A stretch of DNA of 31,107 bases. Source: a virus (lineage: Duplodnaviria > Heunggongvirae > Uroviricota > Caudoviricetes). This document shows positions 14,010-26,155 of the stretch, in pieces. The stretch lies in IMG/VR virus record IMGVR_UViG_2713896798_000014. One strand, given 5' to 3'. Position 1 is the stretch's first letter, and every line of letters starts with the position of its first letter. The translations under genes and the position numbers were made by a program. The notes beneath the pieces were generated by a model. That model saw only the letters and a list, made by a program, of their open reading frames with translations, made no database searches and was not told the origin of the DNA.

Positions 14010-14026
14010 TTTTGTGGAGAAAGTTG

Positions 14027-14398
14027 ATGCGTGATATTCAAATGGTTCTTGAACGTTGGGGGGCATGGGTGGCAAATAATCACGAGGATGTGGAATGGTC
14101 ATCTGTTGCTGCAGGTTTTAAGGGATTAATTCCTTCGAAAGTAAAATCCCGCCCGCAATGTAGCGATGACGATGGCCTGATCATTAGCTCTGCGATGACA
14201 GTTCTTAAGAAAAAGGAACCGTATCAATACGAATTACTGGAAATGTATTATGTGTATGGGGTTACATTACGGGCGTTGGGGGTAAAACTGGGGATATCAC
14301 TTAATCAGGTTGTTATCAGACTGCAGAAAGCTGAAGGGTTTATTGACGGTTGTCTGGCAATGTTGGGGGTATCTTTAGAAATTGATTGTTACATATAG
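14027..14398 (+). CDS. Q: late-gene antiterminator Q-like protein
   Basis: Position immediately upstream of the late region; GGAGA 6 nt upstream of ATG 14027; family assignment from recollection of Q-like sequences. Confidence 0.6.
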   Translation: MRDIQMVLERWGAWVANNHEDVEWSSVAAGFKGLIPSKVKSRPQCSDDDGLIISSAMTVLKKKEPYQYELLEMYYVYGVTLRALGVKLGISLNQVVIRLQKAEGFIDGCLAMLGVSLEIDCYI

Positions 14399-14431: not shown

Positions 14432-14470
14432 TATAATAACCTCCTGATGATACCTGTTCATTGGGAGGTT
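14432..14470 (+). promoter_or_regulatory. consensus -10 (TATAAT) plus hairpin sequestering the downstream Shine-Dalgarno
   Basis: TATAAT at 14432-14437, 34 nt after the Q stop; perfect 7-bp inverted repeat AACCTCC (14438-14444)/GGAGGTT (14464-14470) whose 3' arm overlaps the GGGAGG ribosome-binding site. Confidence 0.4.
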
Positions 14471-14473
14471 ATT

Positions 14474-15091
14474 ATGGATAAAAATGTAGAGCATGTATTA
14501 GTTGATGCAATTGAAAATAAGCAATCTTTAACAGTCGTTTACTTAGGAGGGAGCCAGCCCGGAACATTAAGGAATATTTCTCCGATTAGTATAAATGGGG
14601 ATAAATTGCGGGCAAGATGCCATAGTTCTGGAGCAGTAAAGGTTTTCAATCTTGGGAAAATACAGTTACCCAGTGACTCCTGCGCGGTATCTATGCACTA
14701 TGGAGATTTAGAAGTTAAAGCTTATGAGACGATGCAGAGCGTAAATGACAACTTTCATGCCCTTTATCCTGAAGGACGATGGGGTGTTGATTTTAATGAG
14801 CATCGCTTTGCTTTATTTGATTTTTTTAAAAACGGGAAACGAAAAAAAACGGCATTTATGGCAATTGAGTTCAGGGAAAGAGATGAAGAGAAAATAATAA
14901 CAGGTGTAACAATTGATATTGGTATATCTGGAACAGTGATTTCTGAGAAGTCCCGAATCCCAAAAAGACGACCATGGGTAGTGGTTGGTCCCGAACACGG
15001 AGAATACAGTACTTATTCAACTTTGGACAAGGCTGCTACAGCGTTTTTTGAGAGGCTTTCGTTGATAGCATCCGGCCTGGAAGATAATTGA
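14474..15091 (+). CDS. hypothetical protein with N-terminal WYL-like domain (cargo gene)
   Basis: 205 aa; N-terminal LTVVYLGGSQPGTLRNISPISINGDKLRARCHSSGAVKVFNLGKI fits the WYL pattern as I recall it; visibly AT-rich; start at 14474 (GGGAGG + 5 nt) preferred over track ATG 14447. Confidence 0.55.
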   Translation: MDKNVEHVLVDAIENKQSLTVVYLGGSQPGTLRNISPISINGDKLRARCHSSGAVKVFNLGKIQLPSDSCAVSMHYGDLEVKAYETMQSVNDNFHALYPEGRWGVDFNEHRFALFDFFKNGKRKKTAFMAIEFRERDEEKIITGVTIDIGISGTVISEKSRIPKRRPWVVVGPEHGEYSTYSTLDKAATAFFERLSLIASGLEDN

Positions 15092-15224
15092 TTTTATGTT
15101 TGGTATTCAGAGTTCTCCGTGCTTAAGAAAGTCAAGATTCTAAAAATACTGAATGAGCTACTTGTGTTATAACAAAAATGCTATTAGTGTGTTAAGAGTG
15201 GTTACTTCGCCACACAACTTAAAC

Positions 15225-15245
15225 CCGCCGCTGAGCGGTTTTTTT
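15225..15245 (+). terminator. candidate weak rho-independent terminator
   Basis: Short GC stem (CCGC/GCGG) followed by T7 run. Confidence 0.35.
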
Positions 15246-15369
15246 GTACCTGTAAACCTGGTGCAGTACAGTAAACACGCTGGTGGTCGTGAATACTGGC
15301 TTTTTATCTTGCTGGCTTTTTAGACAAGAGTTATTGGTATGTCACGTTAACCGGAAAGGGTAAAAAGAC

Positions 15370-15567
15370 ATGCTGAAACAGCAGGATATGACAGAAACCG
15401 CCAGAGTTGTGTTTGATGAATTAAGCGTTACCGAACCGGCGACAGTCGGGGAGATTGCGCAGAATACTTACCTTTCACGCGAACGCTGCCAGTTAATACT
15501 GACCCAGCTTGTTATGGCGGGTCTGGCAGACTATCAGTGCGGTTGTTACAGACGCCTTCAGTCCTGA
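15370..15567 (+). CDS. small putative DNA-binding protein (winged-helix-like)
   Basis: 65 aa; segment ATVGEIAQNTYLSRERCQLILTQLVMAGL looks HTH-like; followed directly by a strong terminator. Confidence 0.45.
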   Translation: MLKQQDMTETARVVFDELSVTEPATVGEIAQNTYLSRERCQLILTQLVMAGLADYQCGCYRRLQS

Positions 15568-15580
15568 AGGCTTTTTATTT
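15554..15580 (+). terminator. rho-independent terminator
   Basis: 7-bp stem GCCTTCA/TGAAGGC with 4-nt loop, then TTTTTATTT; overlaps the stop codon. Confidence 0.7.
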
Positions 15581-15635
15581 GTGGTGAATGGGCGGCTGGT
15601 GGGGGGGCGACACCTGTCAGTCCTTTGCTTATGTG

Positions 15636-15666
15636 TTGATGATAATTTACCTTTTGGGGCTATAAT
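15636..15666 (+). promoter_or_regulatory. candidate promoter for the AraC-family gene
   Basis: Perfect TATAAT at 15661-15666, 36 nt before ATG 15702; weak -35 TTGATG with a long spacer; a G7 run lies just upstream (15601-15607). Confidence 0.35.
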
Positions 15667-15701
15667 TGAGCTAACCAATTGCTAATGAAAGTAAAATTAT
15701 A

Positions 15702-16415
15702 ATGGCTGTTGTCTGTTCAGTTATCATGGTTTGCTCCCCAATTAATATTTTTCTTGAAAAGGATACGTTGTCACTTAAGCCAGGCTCAGTTGTTCTGGCC
15801 ACCAAATGCATCAGGGAGCTTTTCCTTATGCATTATGGCAAAGTTAAAATTGTCGATATAAGCGAATCCGTCGTAAGTCAATATCTGGAAAGTCAGCATA
15901 AGCTGACGAGGACTCGTCTGACTGACATTCCGCTTTACCTGTTGCTGGAACCCAACAATCCTGCGTTGGCTGCGGCTTTAATTACCAGCCAGGGATTTTC
16001 CGGAGAGGCCACGGATATGTTTCTTATGATGGCCTGCCTGTCTCTGTTTGAAACAGATGAACGGATGTCATTGTTTTTAAGTGGATGTTTATCCAGCATA
16101 AGTGCCAAAGTCAGGGCGATAATTCAGACAGATATATCAGCAAGCTGGACGCTTGGTGCGATTGCTCTACAGTTGCATATGAGTGAGAGTTTGTTAAAGA
16201 CAAAACTGAAAAATGAAGGGGGCATGTTCAGTCGCTTGTTGCTGGAAGAGCGGATGCGTGTTGCTGTAAATATGTTATGTTCCCGGCATGGATATGGACA
16301 GGCTATAGCAGAAAAATGCGGTTATTCAAGCAGGTCCTACTTTATTTCTGTATTTCACCGCTATTATGGCTTCCCGCCAGACAGATATGTATCCAGGCAA
16401 GGGCTTGATTATTGA
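15702..16415 (+). CDS. AraC/XylS-family transcriptional regulator
   Basis: C-terminal double HTH (WTLGAIALQLHMSESLLKTKLK...GYSSRSYFISVFHRYYGFPPDRY); AT-rich; start uncertain (15702 or 15828). Confidence 0.75.
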   Translation: MAVVCSVIMVCSPINIFLEKDTLSLKPGSVVLATKCIRELFLMHYGKVKIVDISESVVSQYLESQHKLTRTRLTDIPLYLLLEPNNPALAAALITSQGFSGEATDMFLMMACLSLFETDERMSLFLSGCLSSISAKVRAIIQTDISASWTLGAIALQLHMSESLLKTKLKNEGGMFSRLLLEERMRVAVNMLCSRHGYGQAIAEKCGYSSRSYFISVFHRYYGFPPDRYVSRQGLDY

Positions 16416-16443
16416 TTTTCATCTGATTATTATTTTTTGGCTC

Positions 16444-16519
16444 GGCCCTTTAGCTCAGTGGTGAGAGCGAGCGACTCATAATCGCCAGGTCGCTGGTTCA
16501 AATCCAGCAAGGGCCACCA
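16444..16519 (+). tRNA. tRNA with CAU anticodon (Ile2/Met-type, ileZ-like)
   Basis: 76 nt; acceptor stem GGCCCTT/AAGGGCC, anticodon loop CTCATAA, T-loop GGTTCAAATCC, 3' CCA. Confidence 0.8.
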
Positions 16520-16528
16520 TATTACATA

Positions 16529-16605
16529 CCGCTATTAGCTCATCGGGACAGAGCGCCAGCCTTCGAAGCTGGCTGCGCGGGGTTCAAGTCCCCGATGGCG
16601 GTCCA
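16529..16605 (+). tRNA. tRNA-Arg (anticodon UCG)
   Basis: 77 nt; anticodon stem CCAGC/GCTGG with loop CTTCGAA; T-loop GGTTCAAGTCC; 3' CCA. Confidence 0.8.
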
Positions 16606-16618
16606 TTATCAGCATCAT

Positions 16619-16695
16619 GCGTTGTTAGCTCAGTCGGACAGAGCAATTGCCTTCTAAGCAATCGGTCAGTGGTTAGACTCCACTACAACGCGCCA
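16619..16695 (+). tRNA. tRNA-Arg (anticodon UCU)
   Basis: 77 nt; anticodon stem ATTGC/GCAAT with loop CTTCTAA; 3' CCA. Confidence 0.8.
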
Positions 16696-16708
16696 CACTT
16701 ATTTTCCA

Positions 16709-16734
16709 GGCTCGCTTCGGCGGGCCTTTTTTGT
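16709..16734 (+). terminator. rho-independent terminator after the tRNA cluster
   Basis: GGCTCGC-TTCG-GCGGGCC hairpin followed by TTTTTTGT. Confidence 0.65.
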
Positions 16735-16864
16735 ATCTGCGCCACGCCCGGCGCATATCAACCACAGAGCCTTTCGGGGGTGAGCTTACGGAGTGGTCAG
16801 TGTGACTTTCTCTGTGGGCAGATCGCTCCCGGGCGTTGGCTCACCCACCCAAAGGAACGTCACG

Positions 16865-17296
16865 ATGTTTGGAATCTTCAAAAAGAAAACCCGCAGAGCG
16901 GCAGCGGAAATTAAAAAGTTTGAGAAACGCGATCTGGCACAGGCGGTGATTAACGCTGCATACCTGGTGGCCTATGCAGATGGTGAATGCGAGGCATCCG
17001 AGAAAGCGAAGATCGAACAGGTCTTACGTAATCAGCCTGCGTTGTCTGCGTTTACCTCGGAAATTAATGCGATTAGCGCAACCATTATCGGTCAGCTGGA
17101 TACCAATTTTAAAATTGGTCGTCGTGCCGCGTTACGCGAGATTGAGGATGTGAAACACGATACGCGTGAAGCGGAAGATGTGCTGGATGTGGCGGTGGCC
17201 ATTGCGGAGGCAGACGGCGAAATTGAGCCGGAAGAGCGCAAGGTGCTGGAAGAGATTGCCGGTGTTCTGGGTCTTCGTCTGGAGAATCACCTGTGA
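16865..17296 (+). CDS. TerB-like domain protein
   Basis: Two repeats of the ...A.ADGE.E..E pattern (AAYLVAYADGECEASEKAKIEQVL; VAVAIAEADGEIEPEERKVLEEI); start at ATG 16865 with AGGAA upstream. Confidence 0.65.
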   Translation: MFGIFKKKTRRAAAEIKKFEKRDLAQAVINAAYLVAYADGECEASEKAKIEQVLRNQPALSAFTSEINAISATIIGQLDTNFKIGRRAALREIEDVKHDTREAEDVLDVAVAIAEADGEIEPEERKVLEEIAGVLGLRLENHL

Positions 17297-17460
17297 CGGT
17301 AAAACTGCGCCTGGCTGTGGCTGCACTCCTGCTGTTTCTGGTGGTGATGGTGGATCTCACCAGCAGAATCATGTCGGTGCTGGCGGATGGGGTGCTGGTC
17401 TGCGGCATTGTGGTATTGCTGTGGCCGGTGATAAAAAGAAACAGCCTGCATAATGCTTGA
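17293..17460 (+). CDS. small predicted membrane protein (55 aa, two hydrophobic segments)
   Basis: GTG start overlapping the TerB-like stop (GTGA); hand translation VTVKLRLAVAALLLFLVVMVDL...VLVCGIVVLLWPVIKRN; below track cutoff. Confidence 0.4.
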   Translation: MTVKLRLAVAALLLFLVVMVDLTSRIMSVLADGVLVCGIVVLLWPVIKRNSLHNA

Positions 17461-17772
17461 TTTTTTTATTTGCTGTTTATTAAAAACACTTCTGCATGGT
17501 GAATCCCCCTGTGCGGAGGGGCGATCAGCAACCAGGTATATGGGATAATCGCGGATTCAGGTGCTGATACTGAATTCACCGGGAGGCACCCGGCACCATG
17601 CTTTGCCACAAAAGTGTTGTTTCTGTTTTTCTCAAACTATCATCATTATCCCTTTATTTCCGGCTGCGCATGGCGTGGCTTTTTTTACGACCAGCCACTG
17701 GCAGATGGCCATCCTGTAATTTGATTCCGGTTCCGGCTTTTTAACTCTGTTCCTGTACACGGGAGAAATTCG

Positions 17773-19623
17773 ATGTCGATTAAACATTATGATGTTGTCA
17801 GGGCGGCGTCGCCGTCAGACCTTGCGGAAAAGCTGACACATAAACTGAAAGAGGGCTGGCAGCCGTTTGGTAGTCCGGTGGCCATAACCCCTTATACCCT
17901 GATGCAGGCGATTGCAGCAGAAGGTGATGTGGTGGTCAGTGGTGCAACTGAGCCGGAGTGGTACTACGTCATCGTACTGGCCGGGCAGTCCAATGCCATG
18001 GCTTACGGTGAAGGGCTTCCGCTGCCGGATTCATACGATGCTCCGGATCCGCGCATTAAACAGCTGGCGCGCCGCAGTACAGTGACGCCGGGTGGGGCTG
18101 CCTGCAGATATAACGATATTATTCCGGCCGACCATTGCCTGCATGATGTGCAGGATATGAGTACGCTGAATCATCCGAAGGCAGACCTGAGCAAAGGGCA
18201 GTACGGCTGTGTCGGCCAGGGGTTACATATTGCCAAAAAACTGCTCCCGTATATCCCGAATAACGCGGGGATCCTGCTGGTACCATGCTGTCGTGGTGGT
18301 TCGGCATTCACCCAGGGCGCGGAGGGGACATTCAGTGCGGACACGGGGGCCAGCCAGGATTCGGCGCGCTGGGGTGTGGGTAAACCGTTATATCAGGACC
18401 TGATTGCGCGCACCAAAGCTGCATTACAGAAGAACCCGAAAAATGTGTTGCTGGCGGTGTGCTGGATGCAGGGAGAGTTTGACATGAGCGCCGCCACCCA
18501 CGCACAGCAACCTGCGCTGTTTACAGCCATGCTGAAGCAGTTTCGTGCTGACCTCACTGTGTTTAACGCGCAGTGTCATGGTGGCAGTGCTGCAGATGTG
18601 CCGTGGATTTGTGGTGACACGACGTATTACTGGAAAAATACATACGCTACCCAGTACGACACCGTGTACGGCGGGTATAAAAACAGGGAGAGTGAGGGCG
18701 TTTATTTTGTGCCCTTCATGACAGACGGTAACGGCGTTAATACCGCCACTAACGCGCCGGCAGAAGATCCGGATATTCCGGCATCAGGATATTACGGTGC
18801 GGCATCGAGAACGAATGGAAACCAGGTATCATCAAACCGCCCGACACATTTCAGTTCATGGGCGCGCAGGAGCATTATTCCGGATCGTCTGGCAACCGCT
18901 ATTCTGAACGCAGCCGGGCGCACCTCAGCCTTCATCAGTGGTAAGGCACCGGAAATCAAACCCTCGCCCGGCGGCAACACGCCATCGGGTCCGTCTGCAG
19001 ATACGTCCGTTCGCACAATCTCCCTGCTGCCGGCAGCCGGAGAGGCTGCTGCGCAGGGCTGGAGCATTAAGGATGGCGGAATTCAGTTGTCAGATGGTGT
19101 ATTTAAGATCACCAAGCAGAGCAATAAAACCTGGTCCCTGACGCATCCGGTGGATGACGCAATTACCCTGCTGACACAGGGTGGCAGACTGAACTGTAAG
19201 TTCCGCCTGTCAGGCGCACTGACCAACAATCAGTTCGGGCTGGGGATTTATCTGTATACGGATGCTCCCGTTCCTGATGGTGTGGCGATGACGGGTACCG
19301 GTAATCCGTTCCTGATGTCGTACTTCACTCAGACCACTGACGGCAGAGTGAATCTGATGCATCACAGGAAAGCCGGAAACACGAAGCTGGGGGAGTTCGG
19401 CGATTACGGTAACGACTGGCAGACGCTGGAGCTGGTGTTCACCGCCGGCAGTGCCACGGTTACTCCGAAACTGAATGGAGTGGCTGGCCCGGCATTCCAG
19501 GTTATAAAAGACAGTCTGAAAGTGGGGCTGAATGCGCTGACGTTAACTGACATCACAAAAGGTGCCACGTACGGCGTTGAGATAGAAAGTCTGGTGCTGG
19601 AGATAAATACACTGGCAGCATAA
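17773..19623 (+). CDS. nanS: NanS-p-like sialate O-acetylesterase (DUF1737 N-terminus + SGNH/SASA-like domain)
   Basis: N-terminus MSIKHYDVVRAASPSDLAEKLTHKLKEGWQPFGSPV and esterase block VIVLAGQSNAMAYGE; GGGAGA 6 nt upstream; occupies the position of Stx-phage yjhS/nanS-p. Confidence 0.75.
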   Translation: MSIKHYDVVRAASPSDLAEKLTHKLKEGWQPFGSPVAITPYTLMQAIAAEGDVVVSGATEPEWYYVIVLAGQSNAMAYGEGLPLPDSYDAPDPRIKQLARRSTVTPGGAACRYNDIIPADHCLHDVQDMSTLNHPKADLSKGQYGCVGQGLHIAKKLLPYIPNNAGILLVPCCRGGSAFTQGAEGTFSADTGASQDSARWGVGKPLYQDLIARTKAALQKNPKNVLLAVCWMQGEFDMSAATHAQQPALFTAMLKQFRADLTVFNAQCHGGSAADVPWICGDTTYYWKNTYATQYDTVYGGYKNRESEGVYFVPFMTDGNGVNTATNAPAEDPDIPASGYYGAASRTNGNQVSSNRPTHFSSWARRSIIPDRLATAILNAAGRTSAFISGKAPEIKPSPGGNTPSGPSADTSVRTISLLPAAGEAAAQGWSIKDGGIQLSDGVFKITKQSNKTWSLTHPVDDAITLLTQGGRLNCKFRLSGALTNNQFGLGIYLYTDAPVPDGVAMTGTGNPFLMSYFTQTTDGRVNLMHHRKAGNTKLGEFGDYGNDWQTLELVFTAGSATVTPKLNGVAGPAFQVIKDSLKVGLNALTLTDITKGATYGVEIESLVLEINTLAA

Positions 19624-19922: not shown

Positions 19923-20129
19923 ATGGAAAAAATCACAACAGGTGTGTCATACACCACGTCAGCGGTGGGGACGGGATACTGGTTACTGCAGCTGCTGGAC
20001 AAAGTCTCTCCGTCCCAGTGGGTGGCGATAGGTGTGCTGGGGAGTCTGCTGTTTGGCCTGTTGACGTATCTTACTAACCTGTATTTCAAAATCAGAGAGG
20101 ACCGTCGTAAGGCGGCGCGGGGAGAGTAA
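19923..20129 (+). CDS. S: class II holin (phage 21 S-type pinholin)
   Basis: 68 aa; ...[47 protein letters not shown] closely resembles S21 as recalled. Confidence 0.8.
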
Positions 20130-23383: not shown

Positions 23384-23569
23384 TCTCACGCAGAGAAAAA
23401 ATTCCCGTTTCAGGGCAGTTAACATGTTAACTGGCTGTCCGGGCATTTTTGCGGTTTTTATCTTTATTATTCAGTTTGTTGCGTGGGTAACCGGCTCATT
23501 TAAACCGTCTGGTCTGTTTCCTCCGGCTCTACAAAAATAATGTCCATCATTTTTAATGGACACTATCGT

Positions 23570-24217
23570 ATGAAACACCGGACCTGGATCACTGAAGCTT
23601 TACGTCTTCACTTTGAAGAACATTTACCCCGGGTTGTGGCCGGGCGTCGCCTGAGTGTACCAAAATCAACAGTTTGTAGTATGTTCGTGCGCTTTCGGAG
23701 AGCTGGCCTTTCGTGGCCTTTGCCCGCAGGCATGTCGGAGCAGGAACTTGATGCCTGCCTTTACGGACAATTTTCCACGGTACCAGTCGTACGTCCTGAA
23801 AGCACCGTTATATCCGAAGCCCCCGTGGTAAAAAAACGTCCCCGGCGGCCCAACTTCCCTTATGAGTTTAAAATCGCCTTAGTGGAGCAGTCACTACAGC
23901 CCGGAGCCTGTGTGGCGCAGATCGCCCGGGAAAACGGAATCAACGATAACCTGCTCTTCAACTGGCGCCATCAATACCGGAAAGGTGGCCTGCTGCCTTC
24001 CGGAAAAAATATGCCGGCACTGCTTCCCGTGACGTTAACGCCGGAGCCGGATAATAAAATCCCGGCCCCCGCACAGGAACCAGAGCAGATAAATACACCG
24101 TCCGACAGTCTGTGTTGTGAGCTGGTTCTGCCGGCCGGAACTCTCAGGCTTAAAGGTAAACTGACGCCGGCGTTATTACAGACACTTATCCGCGAAATAA
24201 AAGGGAGCAGCCACTGA
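23570..24217 (+). CDS. IS66-family accessory protein (orf1/TnpA-like, HTH)
   Basis: HTH segment ...CVAQIARENGINDNLLFNWRHQYRKG; start uncertain (23540 or 23570). Confidence 0.6.
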   Translation: MKHRTWITEALRLHFEEHLPRVVAGRRLSVPKSTVCSMFVRFRRAGLSWPLPAGMSEQELDACLYGQFSTVPVVRPESTVISEAPVVKKRPRRPNFPYEFKIALVEQSLQPGACVAQIARENGINDNLLFNWRHQYRKGGLLPSGKNMPALLPVTLTPEPDNKIPAPAQEPEQINTPSDSLCCELVLPAGTLRLKGKLTPALLQTLIREIKGSSH

Positions 24218-24564
24218 TGATATCTCTCCCTGCAGGTTCGCGTATCTGGCTGGTTGCAGGTATCACCGATATGCGAAATGGCTTTAACGGCCTGGCATCA
24301 AAAGTTCAGAACGTCCTGAAGGATGACCCGTTCTCCGGACACCTGTTCATCTTCCGCGGACGCCGGGGTGACCAGATAAAAGTGTTGTGGGCTGACAGTG
24401 ACGGACTGTGCCTCTTCACCAAACGCCTGGAGCGGGGCCGCTTCGTCTGGCCAGTCACCCGTGACGGCAAGGTGCACCTTACTCCGGCTCAGTTATCCAT
24501 GCTTCTTGAAGGTATCAACTGGAAGCACCCGAAACGAACGGAACGCGCTGGAATCCGCATATAA
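24217..24564 (+). CDS. IS66 Orf2 (TnpB-like) protein
   Basis: 115 aa; MISLPAGSRIWLVAGITDMRNGFNGLA...HLFIFRGRRGDQIKVLWAD typical of IS66 Orf2; ATGA coupling. Confidence 0.8.
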   Translation: MISLPAGSRIWLVAGITDMRNGFNGLASKVQNVLKDDPFSGHLFIFRGRRGDQIKVLWADSDGLCLFTKRLERGRFVWPVTRDGKVHLTPAQLSMLLEGINWKHPKRTERAGIRI

Positions 24565-24583
24565 CCCGTTGTAAAGTGAGGAT

Positions 24584-26155
24584 ATGGACACCTCACTTGC
24601 TCATGAGAACGCCCGCCTGCGGGCACTGTTGCAGACGCAACAGGACACCATCCGCCAGATGGCTGAATACAACCGCCTGCTCTCACAGCGGGTGGCGGCT
24701 TATGCTTCCGAAATCAACCGGCTGAAGGCGCTGGTTGCGAAACTGCAACGTATGCAGTTCGGTAAAAGCTCAGAAAAACTTCGTGCAAAAACCGAACGGC
24801 AGATACAGGAAGCACAGGAGCGAATCAGCGCACTTCAGGAAGAAATGGCGGAAACGCTGGGTGAGCAATATGACCCGGTACTGCCATCCGCCCTGCGCCA
24901 GTCTTCAGCCCGTAAACCGTTACCGGCCTCACTTCCCCGTGAAACCCGGGTTATCCGGCCGGAAGAGGAATGCTGTCCTGCCTGTGGTGGTGAACTCAGT
25001 TCTCTGGGATGTGATGTGTCAGAGCAACTGGAGCTTATCAGCAGCGCCTTTAAGGTTATCGAAACACAACGTCCGAAACAGGCCTGTTGCCGGTGCGACC
25101 ATATCGTGCAGGCACCAGTACCTTCAAAACCCATTGCACGCAGTTATGCCGGAGCGGGGCTTCTGGCCCATGTTGTCACCGGGAAATATGCAGACCATCT
25201 GCCGTTATACCGCCAGTCAGAAATATACCGTCGTCAGGGAGTGGAGCTGAGCCGTGCCACACTGGGGCGCTGGACAGGTGCTGTTGCTGAACTGCTGGAG
25301 CCGCTGTATGACGTCCTGCGCCAGTATGTGCTGATGCCCGGTAAAGTCCATGCTGATGATATCCCCGTCCCGGTCCAGGAGCCGGGCAGCGGTAAAACCC
25401 GGACAGCCCGGCTGTGGGTCTACGTCCGTGATGACCGTAACGCCGGTTCACAGATGCCCCCGGCGGTCTGGTTCGCGTACAGTCCGGACCGGAAAGGTAT
25501 CCATCCACAAAATCACCTGGCCGGTTACAGCGGTGTGCTTCAGGCCGATGCTTACGGTGGTTACCGGGCGTTATACGAATCCGGCAGAATAACGGAAGCC
25601 GCGTGTATGGCTCATGCCCGGAGAAAAATCCACGATGTGCATGCAAGAGCGCCCACCTACATCACCACGGAAGCCCTGCAGCGTATCGGTGAACTGTATG
25701 CCATCGAGGCAGAGGTCCGGGGCTGTTCAGCAGAACAGCGTCTGGCGGCAAGAAAAGCCAGAGCCGCGCCACTGATGCAGTCACTGTATGACTGGATACA
25801 GCAACAGATGAAAACACTGTCGCGTCACTCAGATACGGCAAAAGCGTTCGCATACCTGCTGAAACAGTGGGATGCACTGAACGTGTACTGCAGTAATGGC
25901 TGGGTGGAAATCGACAACAACATCGCAGAGAACGCCTTACGGGGAGTGGCCGTAGGCCGGAAAAACTGGATGTTCGCGGGTTCCGACAGCGGTGGTGAAC
26001 ATGCGGCGGTGTTGTACTCGCTGATCGGCACATGCCGTCTGAACAATGTGGAGCCAGAAAAGTGGCTGCGTTACGTCATTGAACATATCCAGGACTGGCC
26101 GGCAAACCGGGTACGCGATCTGTTGCCCTGGAAAGTTGATCTGAGCTCTCAGTAA
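24584..26155 (+). CDS. IS66-family transposase (TnpC)
   Basis: 523 aa; N-terminal leucine-zipper-like region, CxxC...CxxC zinc motif, conserved core typical of IS66 transposases. Confidence 0.85.

Follow-up and report, generated by a model that had tools for sequence, protein, structure and literature searches.

The DNA analysed here, a 31,107-nucleotide (nt) stretch of a virus of the Caudoviricetes (IMG/VR record IMGVR_UViG_2713896798_000014) whose full length is referred to as the window, carries at positions 16865-17460 a gene pair that is already known as a named phage cassette, tciA/tciB, and is widely annotated. TciA is a stand-alone TerB domain and TciB a small hydrophobic peptide of the DUF3927 family, and the pair occupies the position in which Shiga toxin (Stx) phages carry stxAB. 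We suggest, at a probability of roughly 40%, that tciAB may be a two-protein inner-membrane module of the lytic programme whose role is to guard the infected cell's inner membrane or to condition it, which is a composite explanation. On this reading, the cassette would be neither a toxin nor, on its own, a tellurite detoxifier. Its features are as follows:

16744-16864, plus strand: cassette-specific 5' leader of tciA, common to phage JLK-2012 and absent from Stx phages
16865-17296, plus strand: tciA, a 143-amino-acid (aa) cytoplasmic acidic TerB-domain protein (Pfam, PHROG 632, PDB 2jxu, AlphaFold2, Foldseek)
17293-17460, plus strand: tciB, a 55-aa hydrophobic DUF3927 peptide (Pfam, PHROG 1470)

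The original prediction, made from the sequence of this stretch, had placed both open reading frames (ORFs) exactly and had described a TerB gene whose stop codon overlaps the GTG start of a 55-codon ORF, as is the case. The 143 codons of tciA run from an ATG at 16865, with the Shine-Dalgarno sequence AAGGA 8 nt before it, to a TGA at 17294-17296; tciB starts with the GTG at 17293, is preceded by GGAG at -13 to -10 and ends with a stop codon at 17458-17460, and the stop of the first gene and the start of the second share the four bases GTGA. As judged from this arrangement, tciA and tciB are translationally coupled. A longer reading of tciA offered by the ORF finder, from a GTG at 16793 (167 aa), is not supported: the homologs all start with MFG. 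Both genes are under purifying selection, with ratios of nonsynonymous to synonymous substitution rates (dN/dS) of 0.04-0.54 for tciA (0.04-0.21 in close pairs) and 0.08-0.41 for tciB.

The TerB-like assignment survives profile search, as TciA scores 60.2 bits (gathering cut-off 24.4; E 2.9e-16) against Pfam TerB PF05099, with residues 26-138 aligned to profile positions 2-109 of 118. TciA also matches PHROG 632 ("tellurite resistance") over its full length (1-143 of 143; E 1.7e-69) and the solved Klebsiella TerB structure (PDB 2jxu) over residues 14-137 (phmmer, E 4.4e-8). The AlphaFold2 model of TciA, built with 22 homologs, is all-helical with eight helices and a predicted local distance difference test (pLDDT) score of 88.1. 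The nearest structure found by Foldseek is 2h5n (probability 1.0, TM 0.55-0.64), and 2ou3, a COG3793 tellurite resistance protein, is found at a probability of 0.84, the E-values of these searches being modest (1e-2 to 0.85). The protein is acidic (isoelectric point 5.1) with a basic N-terminal helix, and contains two ADGxxxxxE motifs, ADGECEASE at 38-46 and ADGEIEPEE at 116-124; among the 22 homologs, no variation is seen at D117, G118 and E124, and conservation is at least 90% at D39 and G40. A duplicated acidic (A/S)DG-x5-E motif is reportedly the metal site proposed for TerB by Anantharaman et al. in 2012.

The small ORF is genuine and of membrane type, as had been predicted. TciB scores 58.9 bits (gathering cut-off 25; E 4.9e-16) against Pfam DUF3927 PF13064, with residues 3-51 aligned to profile positions 2-50 of 53, and matches PHROG 1470 ("TciB-like") over its full length (1-54 of 54; E 1.9e-28); no holin family of Pfam is matched by TciB, DUF3927 being the only hit. 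DUF3927 is a small family, with 105 clusters at 50% identity among 1.84 billion representatives. The motif of TciB is VDxTSRxMSxLADGxLV...WPxxK, in which P45 and K48 are invariant among the homologs. Of the two helices that had been expected, two marginal hydrophobic segments are found (residues ~5-22 and ~26-47, with D-L-T-S-R between them and an insertion free energy estimated at about -2 to +1 kcal/mol), whereas the AlphaFold2 model shows one helix. Lys and Arg are present at both termini, which would fit a hairpin with the N- and C-termini inside.

The association of the two genes was traced across phages by a tblastn search of TciA against GenBank phages, which returned 131 phage records, and by inspection of 20 loci that cover 28-100% TciA identity, with a TciB hidden Markov model (HMM) built from 13 E. 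coli proteins and the TciB of coliphages 434 and JLK-2012. Of the 20 TciA-type loci, 14 have a TciB homolog (HMM E 8e-36 to 6e-5), and the offset of its start from the TerB stop is -8 to +4 nt in every one of them, with junctions of the form GTGA, TGATG or TAATG, TAAATG, or short spacers. The paired loci are those of the window itself, JLK-2012, LMessi, Klebsiella phage 5 LV-2017, P1, P7 and the Klebsiella phage-plasmid pJN2-26; the N4-like phages Pollock, FSL SP-076 and Shigella B2; and Pantoea LIET2, Pseudomonas ZY21 (in which the TciB ORF is unannotated) and the jumbo phages pSal-SNUABM-04 and ChrisDB. The pair also occurs in four Pantoea and Klebsiella prophage loci, and the overlap is likewise found in two further prophage loci that were checked. 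Pairing is kept as TciA identity drops to 28%. The small ORF is thus conserved with a TerB gene that passes profile search, and on neither count does the original prediction fail. A tblastn search of TciB itself returns only 12 phage records and is invalid as a census, since the low-complexity filter masks the first hydrophobic segment; a scan of genome contigs with the TciB alignment gave a single metagenome-assembled genome fragment, and a scan of viral contigs gave 80 near-identical E. coli prophage copies, too similar to serve for an analysis of divergence.

Loci with a different partner show a related arrangement. In the Pseudomonas phages AF and Zuri, a different one-helix membrane ORF of 67-73 aa abuts the TerB gene (L092:1932-2153 and L095:1643-1846); these ORFs have 46% identity and the motif YG(Y/W)QTERET(R/K)YA.FVGCMV in common, match no Pfam family, and look like an alternative membrane partner of TerB. 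The Vibrio N4-like phage BUCT194 has TerB, TerC and TerB genes in a row (L103:1-1877), i.e., a phage-borne TerC. From this comparison, a logic of TerB plus a membrane partner emerges in which the partner can be swapped, for another one-helix ORF in AF and Zuri and for TerC beside TerB in BUCT194. No Pfam family was matched by the membrane protein of 247 aa that phage 434 encodes upstream of TciB, by P1 TciC or by the BUCT194 ORF downstream of TerB.

In E. coli genomes, 4526 tciB-like places are matched at the DNA level versus 3201 tciA-like places. The surplus of tciB matches was considered as a refutation of the pairing and rejected, the two examples that were opened being decayed remnants, of which one is a 28-aa piece left in a cryptic prophage of Qin type and the other a pseudogene flanked by insertion sequences (IS). 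A lone 28-aa DUF3927 remnant, a degenerate form of the cassette, is located after Q and tRNA-Ile, beside iraM, in the Qin-like prophage of many E. coli genomes (L104:3034-3120).

At the nucleotide level, the claim that the cargo lies in the stxAB-equivalent position is borne out by two Stx phages. Positions 16440-16743 of the window are 89.5% identical to Stx2c phage 1717, the homology stops at 16743 and restarts at 17480, and stx2cAB lies in between; in the Stx1a phage Stx1_EH1992, the right flank is common from 17480, with stx1AB ending just upstream. This flank homology therefore identifies 16744-17479 as an alternative cargo in the exact position of stxAB. An intrinsic-terminator-like hairpin at 16708-16727 follows the last of three tRNA genes upstream of tciA, within the flank common to Stx phages and JLK-2012, and a plus-strand promoter scan revealed no sigma-70-like promoter between this terminator and tciA.

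The contexts of the pair also bear on the timing of its expression. Lambdoid phages of E. coli, Klebsiella and Pantoea carry it between Q and the lysis genes, whichever of three unrelated Q families is present (PF06530, PF03589 or PF06323). In P1, tciAB is downstream of the ban promoters, which are controlled by C1 operators, in the C1-repressed ban operon. In N4-like phages, the pair is found amid dUTPase, replication and ATPase genes of early or middle type, and in jumbo phages it lies where the genome record begins, in a region rich in tRNA genes. Both of these phage groups are known as virulent types. Because the pair is present in these phages and in the repressed ban operon of P1, we infer from gene order and annotation that tciAB is made during lytic growth and not in the resting lysogen, and its expression in a quiet lysogen is probably not to be expected. 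Transcripts of P1 tciA, tciB and tciC have been detected during P1vir infection.

These genes are not new. GenBank phage records, e.g., those of JLK-2012 and PPyecE_EH1910, call the pair tciA/tciB, PHROGs 632 and 1470 cover it, RefSeq labels it "tellurite resistance TerB family protein" and "DUF3927 family protein", and the names go back to the 2004 P1 genome paper. Of 5426 complete E. coli genomes, 803 have both genes intact, and several genomes contain copies that are 100% identical across the cassette and its flanks (window 16700-17560). The novelty that the original prediction implied is accordingly lost: the pair is the tciA/tciB known from P1 and from numerous lambdoid, N4-like and jumbo phages. 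Reviews have offered speculation only, on protection against tellurite or phage.

In the proposed mechanism, TciB would be the membrane partner of cytoplasmic TciA, as the integral-membrane protein TerC is for TerB in ter operons; TerB has been reported to interact with TerC. TciA could dock via its basic N-terminal helix, via the conserved cytoplasmic WPxxK end of TciB, or via both, and its twin ADGxxxxxE motifs may bind a cation or small ligand. While the phage replicates, the TciAB complex would guard or condition the inner membrane of its host cell. The likeliest targets would be secondary insults that enter via the inner membrane, e.g., superinfecting phage DNA or pore-forming colicins. 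Ter clusters have historically been tied to these phenotypes, and the ter cluster has been linked to phage inhibition and colicin resistance. The genes of P1 are non-essential in the CRISPR interference (CRISPRi) screen mentioned below, and any benefit would therefore be conditional. In a loose sense, the predicted term "stress module", for a TerB protein with a membrane partner, is a plausible candidate description. A further step is more speculative and rather doubtful: the cassette would be a phage-borne "minimal Ter" that, in lytic growth, keeps the inner membrane shut to competitors such as superinfecting phages and colicins, or else supplies TerB as a decoy, so that host membrane-surveillance immunity based on TerB (ter, Bunzi, Shango and Dionysus) is blinded.

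Several observations weigh against an inner-membrane module formed by the two proteins. With regard to the partners, a physical interaction between TciA and TciB is putative. Three of the 20 loci, or four in another count, have TciA with no membrane gene beside it, and phage 434 has TciB without TciA, which is a genuine case. TerB-DUF3927 fusion proteins that might have linked the families (P0223, P0285, P0130 and P0170) were rejected as frameshift or chimeric calls and give no Rosetta-stone support. Near-identical tciB genes accompany highly divergent tciA genes in P1 versus P7 and in FSL SP-076 versus Shigella B2 (tciB dN 0.11 and 0.03, tciA dN ~0.8), which points to recombination at the gene junction, and such shuffling of alleles argues against a tightly co-evolved interface. 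With regard to TciB, its intramembrane residues D21 and D32-G33 are not kept in jumbo-phage TciB, and AlphaFold2 drew it as a single continuous helix (residues 3-54) and reproduced no hairpin. With regard to function and timing, tciA and tciB were named "by homology", a literature search on TciA/TciB yielded no experiment on function, a CRISPRi screen scored P1 tciA, tciB and tciC as non-essential, and a promoter-like site before the tRNAs (16405-16433) could permit some read-through in lysogens.

The abortive-infection reading that accompanied the original prediction is the less likely one and is not supported. Here, tciAB would be a defence module that protects the lysogen, with TciA sensing the membrane perturbation caused by an incoming phage and TciB acting as a small membrane-disrupting effector. 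TerB domains do occur in the validated systems Bunzi, Shango and Dionysus, for which "membrane surveillance" has been proposed, and Dionysus couples TerB to a pore-forming membrane effector; prophage TerB has been speculated in the literature to be a defence gene, and the promoter-like site before the tRNAs could give basal expression. However, PADLOC-DB v2 gives TciA only a match to PDC-S48 (E 0.0035 over 35 residues) and TciB none, the cassette is preceded by a terminator, within the late region, and lacks a promoter-like site of its own, and its neighbours are tRNAs, an esterase and a holin, the Pfam scan having shown no helicase, ATPase, pore-forming-toxin or MAEBL partners. Lysogen protection would also be senseless in N4-like and jumbo phages and in the repressed lytic operon of P1, and we consider this explanation improbable.

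A counter-defence role, in which TciA would mimic TerB and, during infection, titrate or blind the TerB-based systems of the host (ter and the Bunzi, Shango and Dionysus types), is improbable to a similar degree. It would agree with carriers that are mainly phages, the N4-like and jumbo types included, with expression in lytic programmes and with the use of a TerB domain by the target systems too, and the shuffling of divergent tciA alleles over a constant tciB would suit a component of an arms race. Nevertheless, this explanation is pure inference, within lineages tciA evolves under purifying selection (the close-pair range given above), and the obligatory membrane partner is left unexplained.

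A role as an accessory of lysis timing, with TciB as a small holin- or antiholin-like peptide modulated by TciA, appears still less likely. The pair is always just upstream of the lysis cassette in the lambdoids of E. coli, Klebsiella and Pantoea, and the size and hydrophobicity of TciB resemble those of a small holin; however, TciB fits no holin family, the pair is remote from lysis genes in P1, N4-like and jumbo phages, amid replication, nucleotide-metabolism and tRNA genes, and the window already has a complete S/R/Rz set. A conversion of the lysogen to resistance against tellurite or metals, which the name in the databases suggests, is very improbable in spite of TerB family membership and of acidic ADG motifs that suggest cation binding, as a Pfam scan of the 18 neighbouring ORFs contains no TerC, TerD, TerE or TerZ, terBCDEF is the smallest resistance-conferring construct cited, and the pair has a late-operon position and is carried by N4-like and jumbo phages too.

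The cassette itself is ordinary, being named, profiled and annotated in hundreds of genomes. TerB together with a dedicated tiny membrane partner is nevertheless retained by very different phages, and in prophages of the type found in Shiga toxin-producing E. coli, tciAB fills the highly expressed slot of the toxin. TerB domains have recently been found in several anti-phage systems of unexplained mechanism, and the two-gene phage version of ~600 bp is a tractable handle on the action of TerB at the membrane. If the minimal Ter explanation is true, it would provide the first function for DUF3927 and would account for the retention of the same pair in temperate lambdoids, P1-like plasmids, N4-like phages and jumbo phages.

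The surroundings of the cassette in the window contain the following features:

14012-14398: Q gene (context ORF)
16444-16695, plus strand: three tRNA genes, Met(CAU), Arg(UCG) and Arg(UCU) (ARAGORN, Rfam tRNA)
16708-16727, plus strand: intrinsic-terminator-like hairpin of 8 pairs, 6 of them G-C, then TTTTTGTATC, with the T-run extending to 16737
17468-17645, plus strand: small RNA (sRNA) of the STnc100 family (Rfam RF02076, 105.1 bits versus a gathering cut-off of 47, E 8.3e-23)
17662-17680, plus strand: terminator-like hairpin of 8 pairs, 5 of them G-C, then TTTTTTTACGA, with the T-run extending to 17690
17773-19623: SASA/DUF1737 esterase (Pfam scan)
19923-20129: P21-type holin (PF04971, 8.8e-33)

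The predicted layout of Q, three tRNAs, cargo, esterase and holin is confirmed by ARAGORN and Pfam, except that three additional ORFs between Q and the tRNAs (window 14447-16415) had been omitted. The first of these (14447-15091) encodes a 214-aa protein with a match to PHROG 8498 and a weak WYL match. Another, of 65 aa, has a terminator-like hairpin of its own. A 237-aa AraC-family regulator is closest to YdeO/GadX (4e-31, below the cut-off), is associated with a promoter-like site at 15639-15666, and presumably resembles the Psr/PatE prophage regulators of enterohaemorrhagic E. coli. A strong terminator-like hairpin (GCCGCTGAGCGGT followed by T7) at 15227-15246, ~140 nt 3' of the ORF at 14447-15091, could be the tR' of the late operon. 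A scan for pR'/tR' after Q found no convincing promoter, and the assignment to a late operon therefore rests on gene order.

Downstream, the STnc100 sRNA, a full-length member of its family, begins 8 nt past the tciB stop and belongs to the right flank common to Stx phages, not to the cassette; the hairpin at 17662 closes the tciAB/STnc100 segment ahead of the esterase gene. In a published study, STnc_100 sits 75 nt downstream of stx2 in Stx2 phages, and a 2026 preprint describes the STnc100 sRNA as related to PasD sRNAs. The sRNA could be derived from the 3' untranslated region of whichever cargo fills the slot. The order in the lysis-gene region is holin, DUF1327, lysozyme, antirepressor-like and Rz, and to the right of it are an IS66-family element at 23540-26155 (three ORFs; transposase match 2.5e-103) and then a minus-strand integrase gene at 28508-29605. 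No terminase or head genes were found among the scanned ORFs, in a scan that did not cover everything to the right of the lysis genes, and the prophage may be truncated or defective here.

In 9 of 24 loci, drawn from at least five phage lineages, tciA has same-strand tRNA genes at a distance of up to ~1 kb. They include Asn/Thr in P1, P7 and JLK-2012, Thr in a Klebsiella phage, Asn in a Pantoea prophage, Trp/Cys in jumbo phages and Arg in ZY21. This proximity may reflect either a travelling tRNA-tciAB module or a common cargo hotspot.

Among known systems, JLK-2012 carries essentially the same cassette (97% and 69% aa identity for TciA and TciB, respectively) in the same layout of Q, tRNA, tciAB, esterase and holin, and differs in its upstream tRNAs (Asn/Thr/Gly) and in the C-terminal tail of TciB. 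The P1 genes tciA-tciB(-tciC) belong to the same two families, in the same order, with a fused stop and start and with adjoining tRNA genes; TciA of the window is 42% identical to that of P1, and P1 TciB is matched by the TciB HMM at 2.9e-17. The pair of P1 is located in the ban operon, whereas that of the window is in a lambdoid late region, and P1 has a third gene, tciC, for a 35-aa one-helix peptide that is not found here by tblastn of P1 TciC against 17400-17800, a stretch that is the STnc100 sRNA. TciA of the window is closer to the alleles of P7 and jumbo phages (51-76%) than to that of P1.

The ter clusters terZABCDEF of the IncHI2 plasmid R478, E. coli O157 and Klebsiella likewise place a TerB-domain gene beside a gene for a membrane protein. 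Their partner, however, is the multi-pass TerC, which is unrelated to the 55-aa TciB, and they reside on a plasmid or island together with TerD, TerE, TerZ and TerA, whereas the window is phage DNA in which none of the scanned ORFs encodes those partners. Bunzi, Shango and Dionysus combine a TerB domain with membrane-associated components, as tciAB does, and Dionysus has a membrane pore-former; these systems have other partners, are encoded by the host and have their own promoters, whereas tciAB is phage-encoded, probably belongs to the lytic phase and has no PADLOC model match. The stxAB moron carries a cargo unrelated to tciAB and, like tciAB, is inserted between the post-tRNA terminator and the STnc100/esterase flank.

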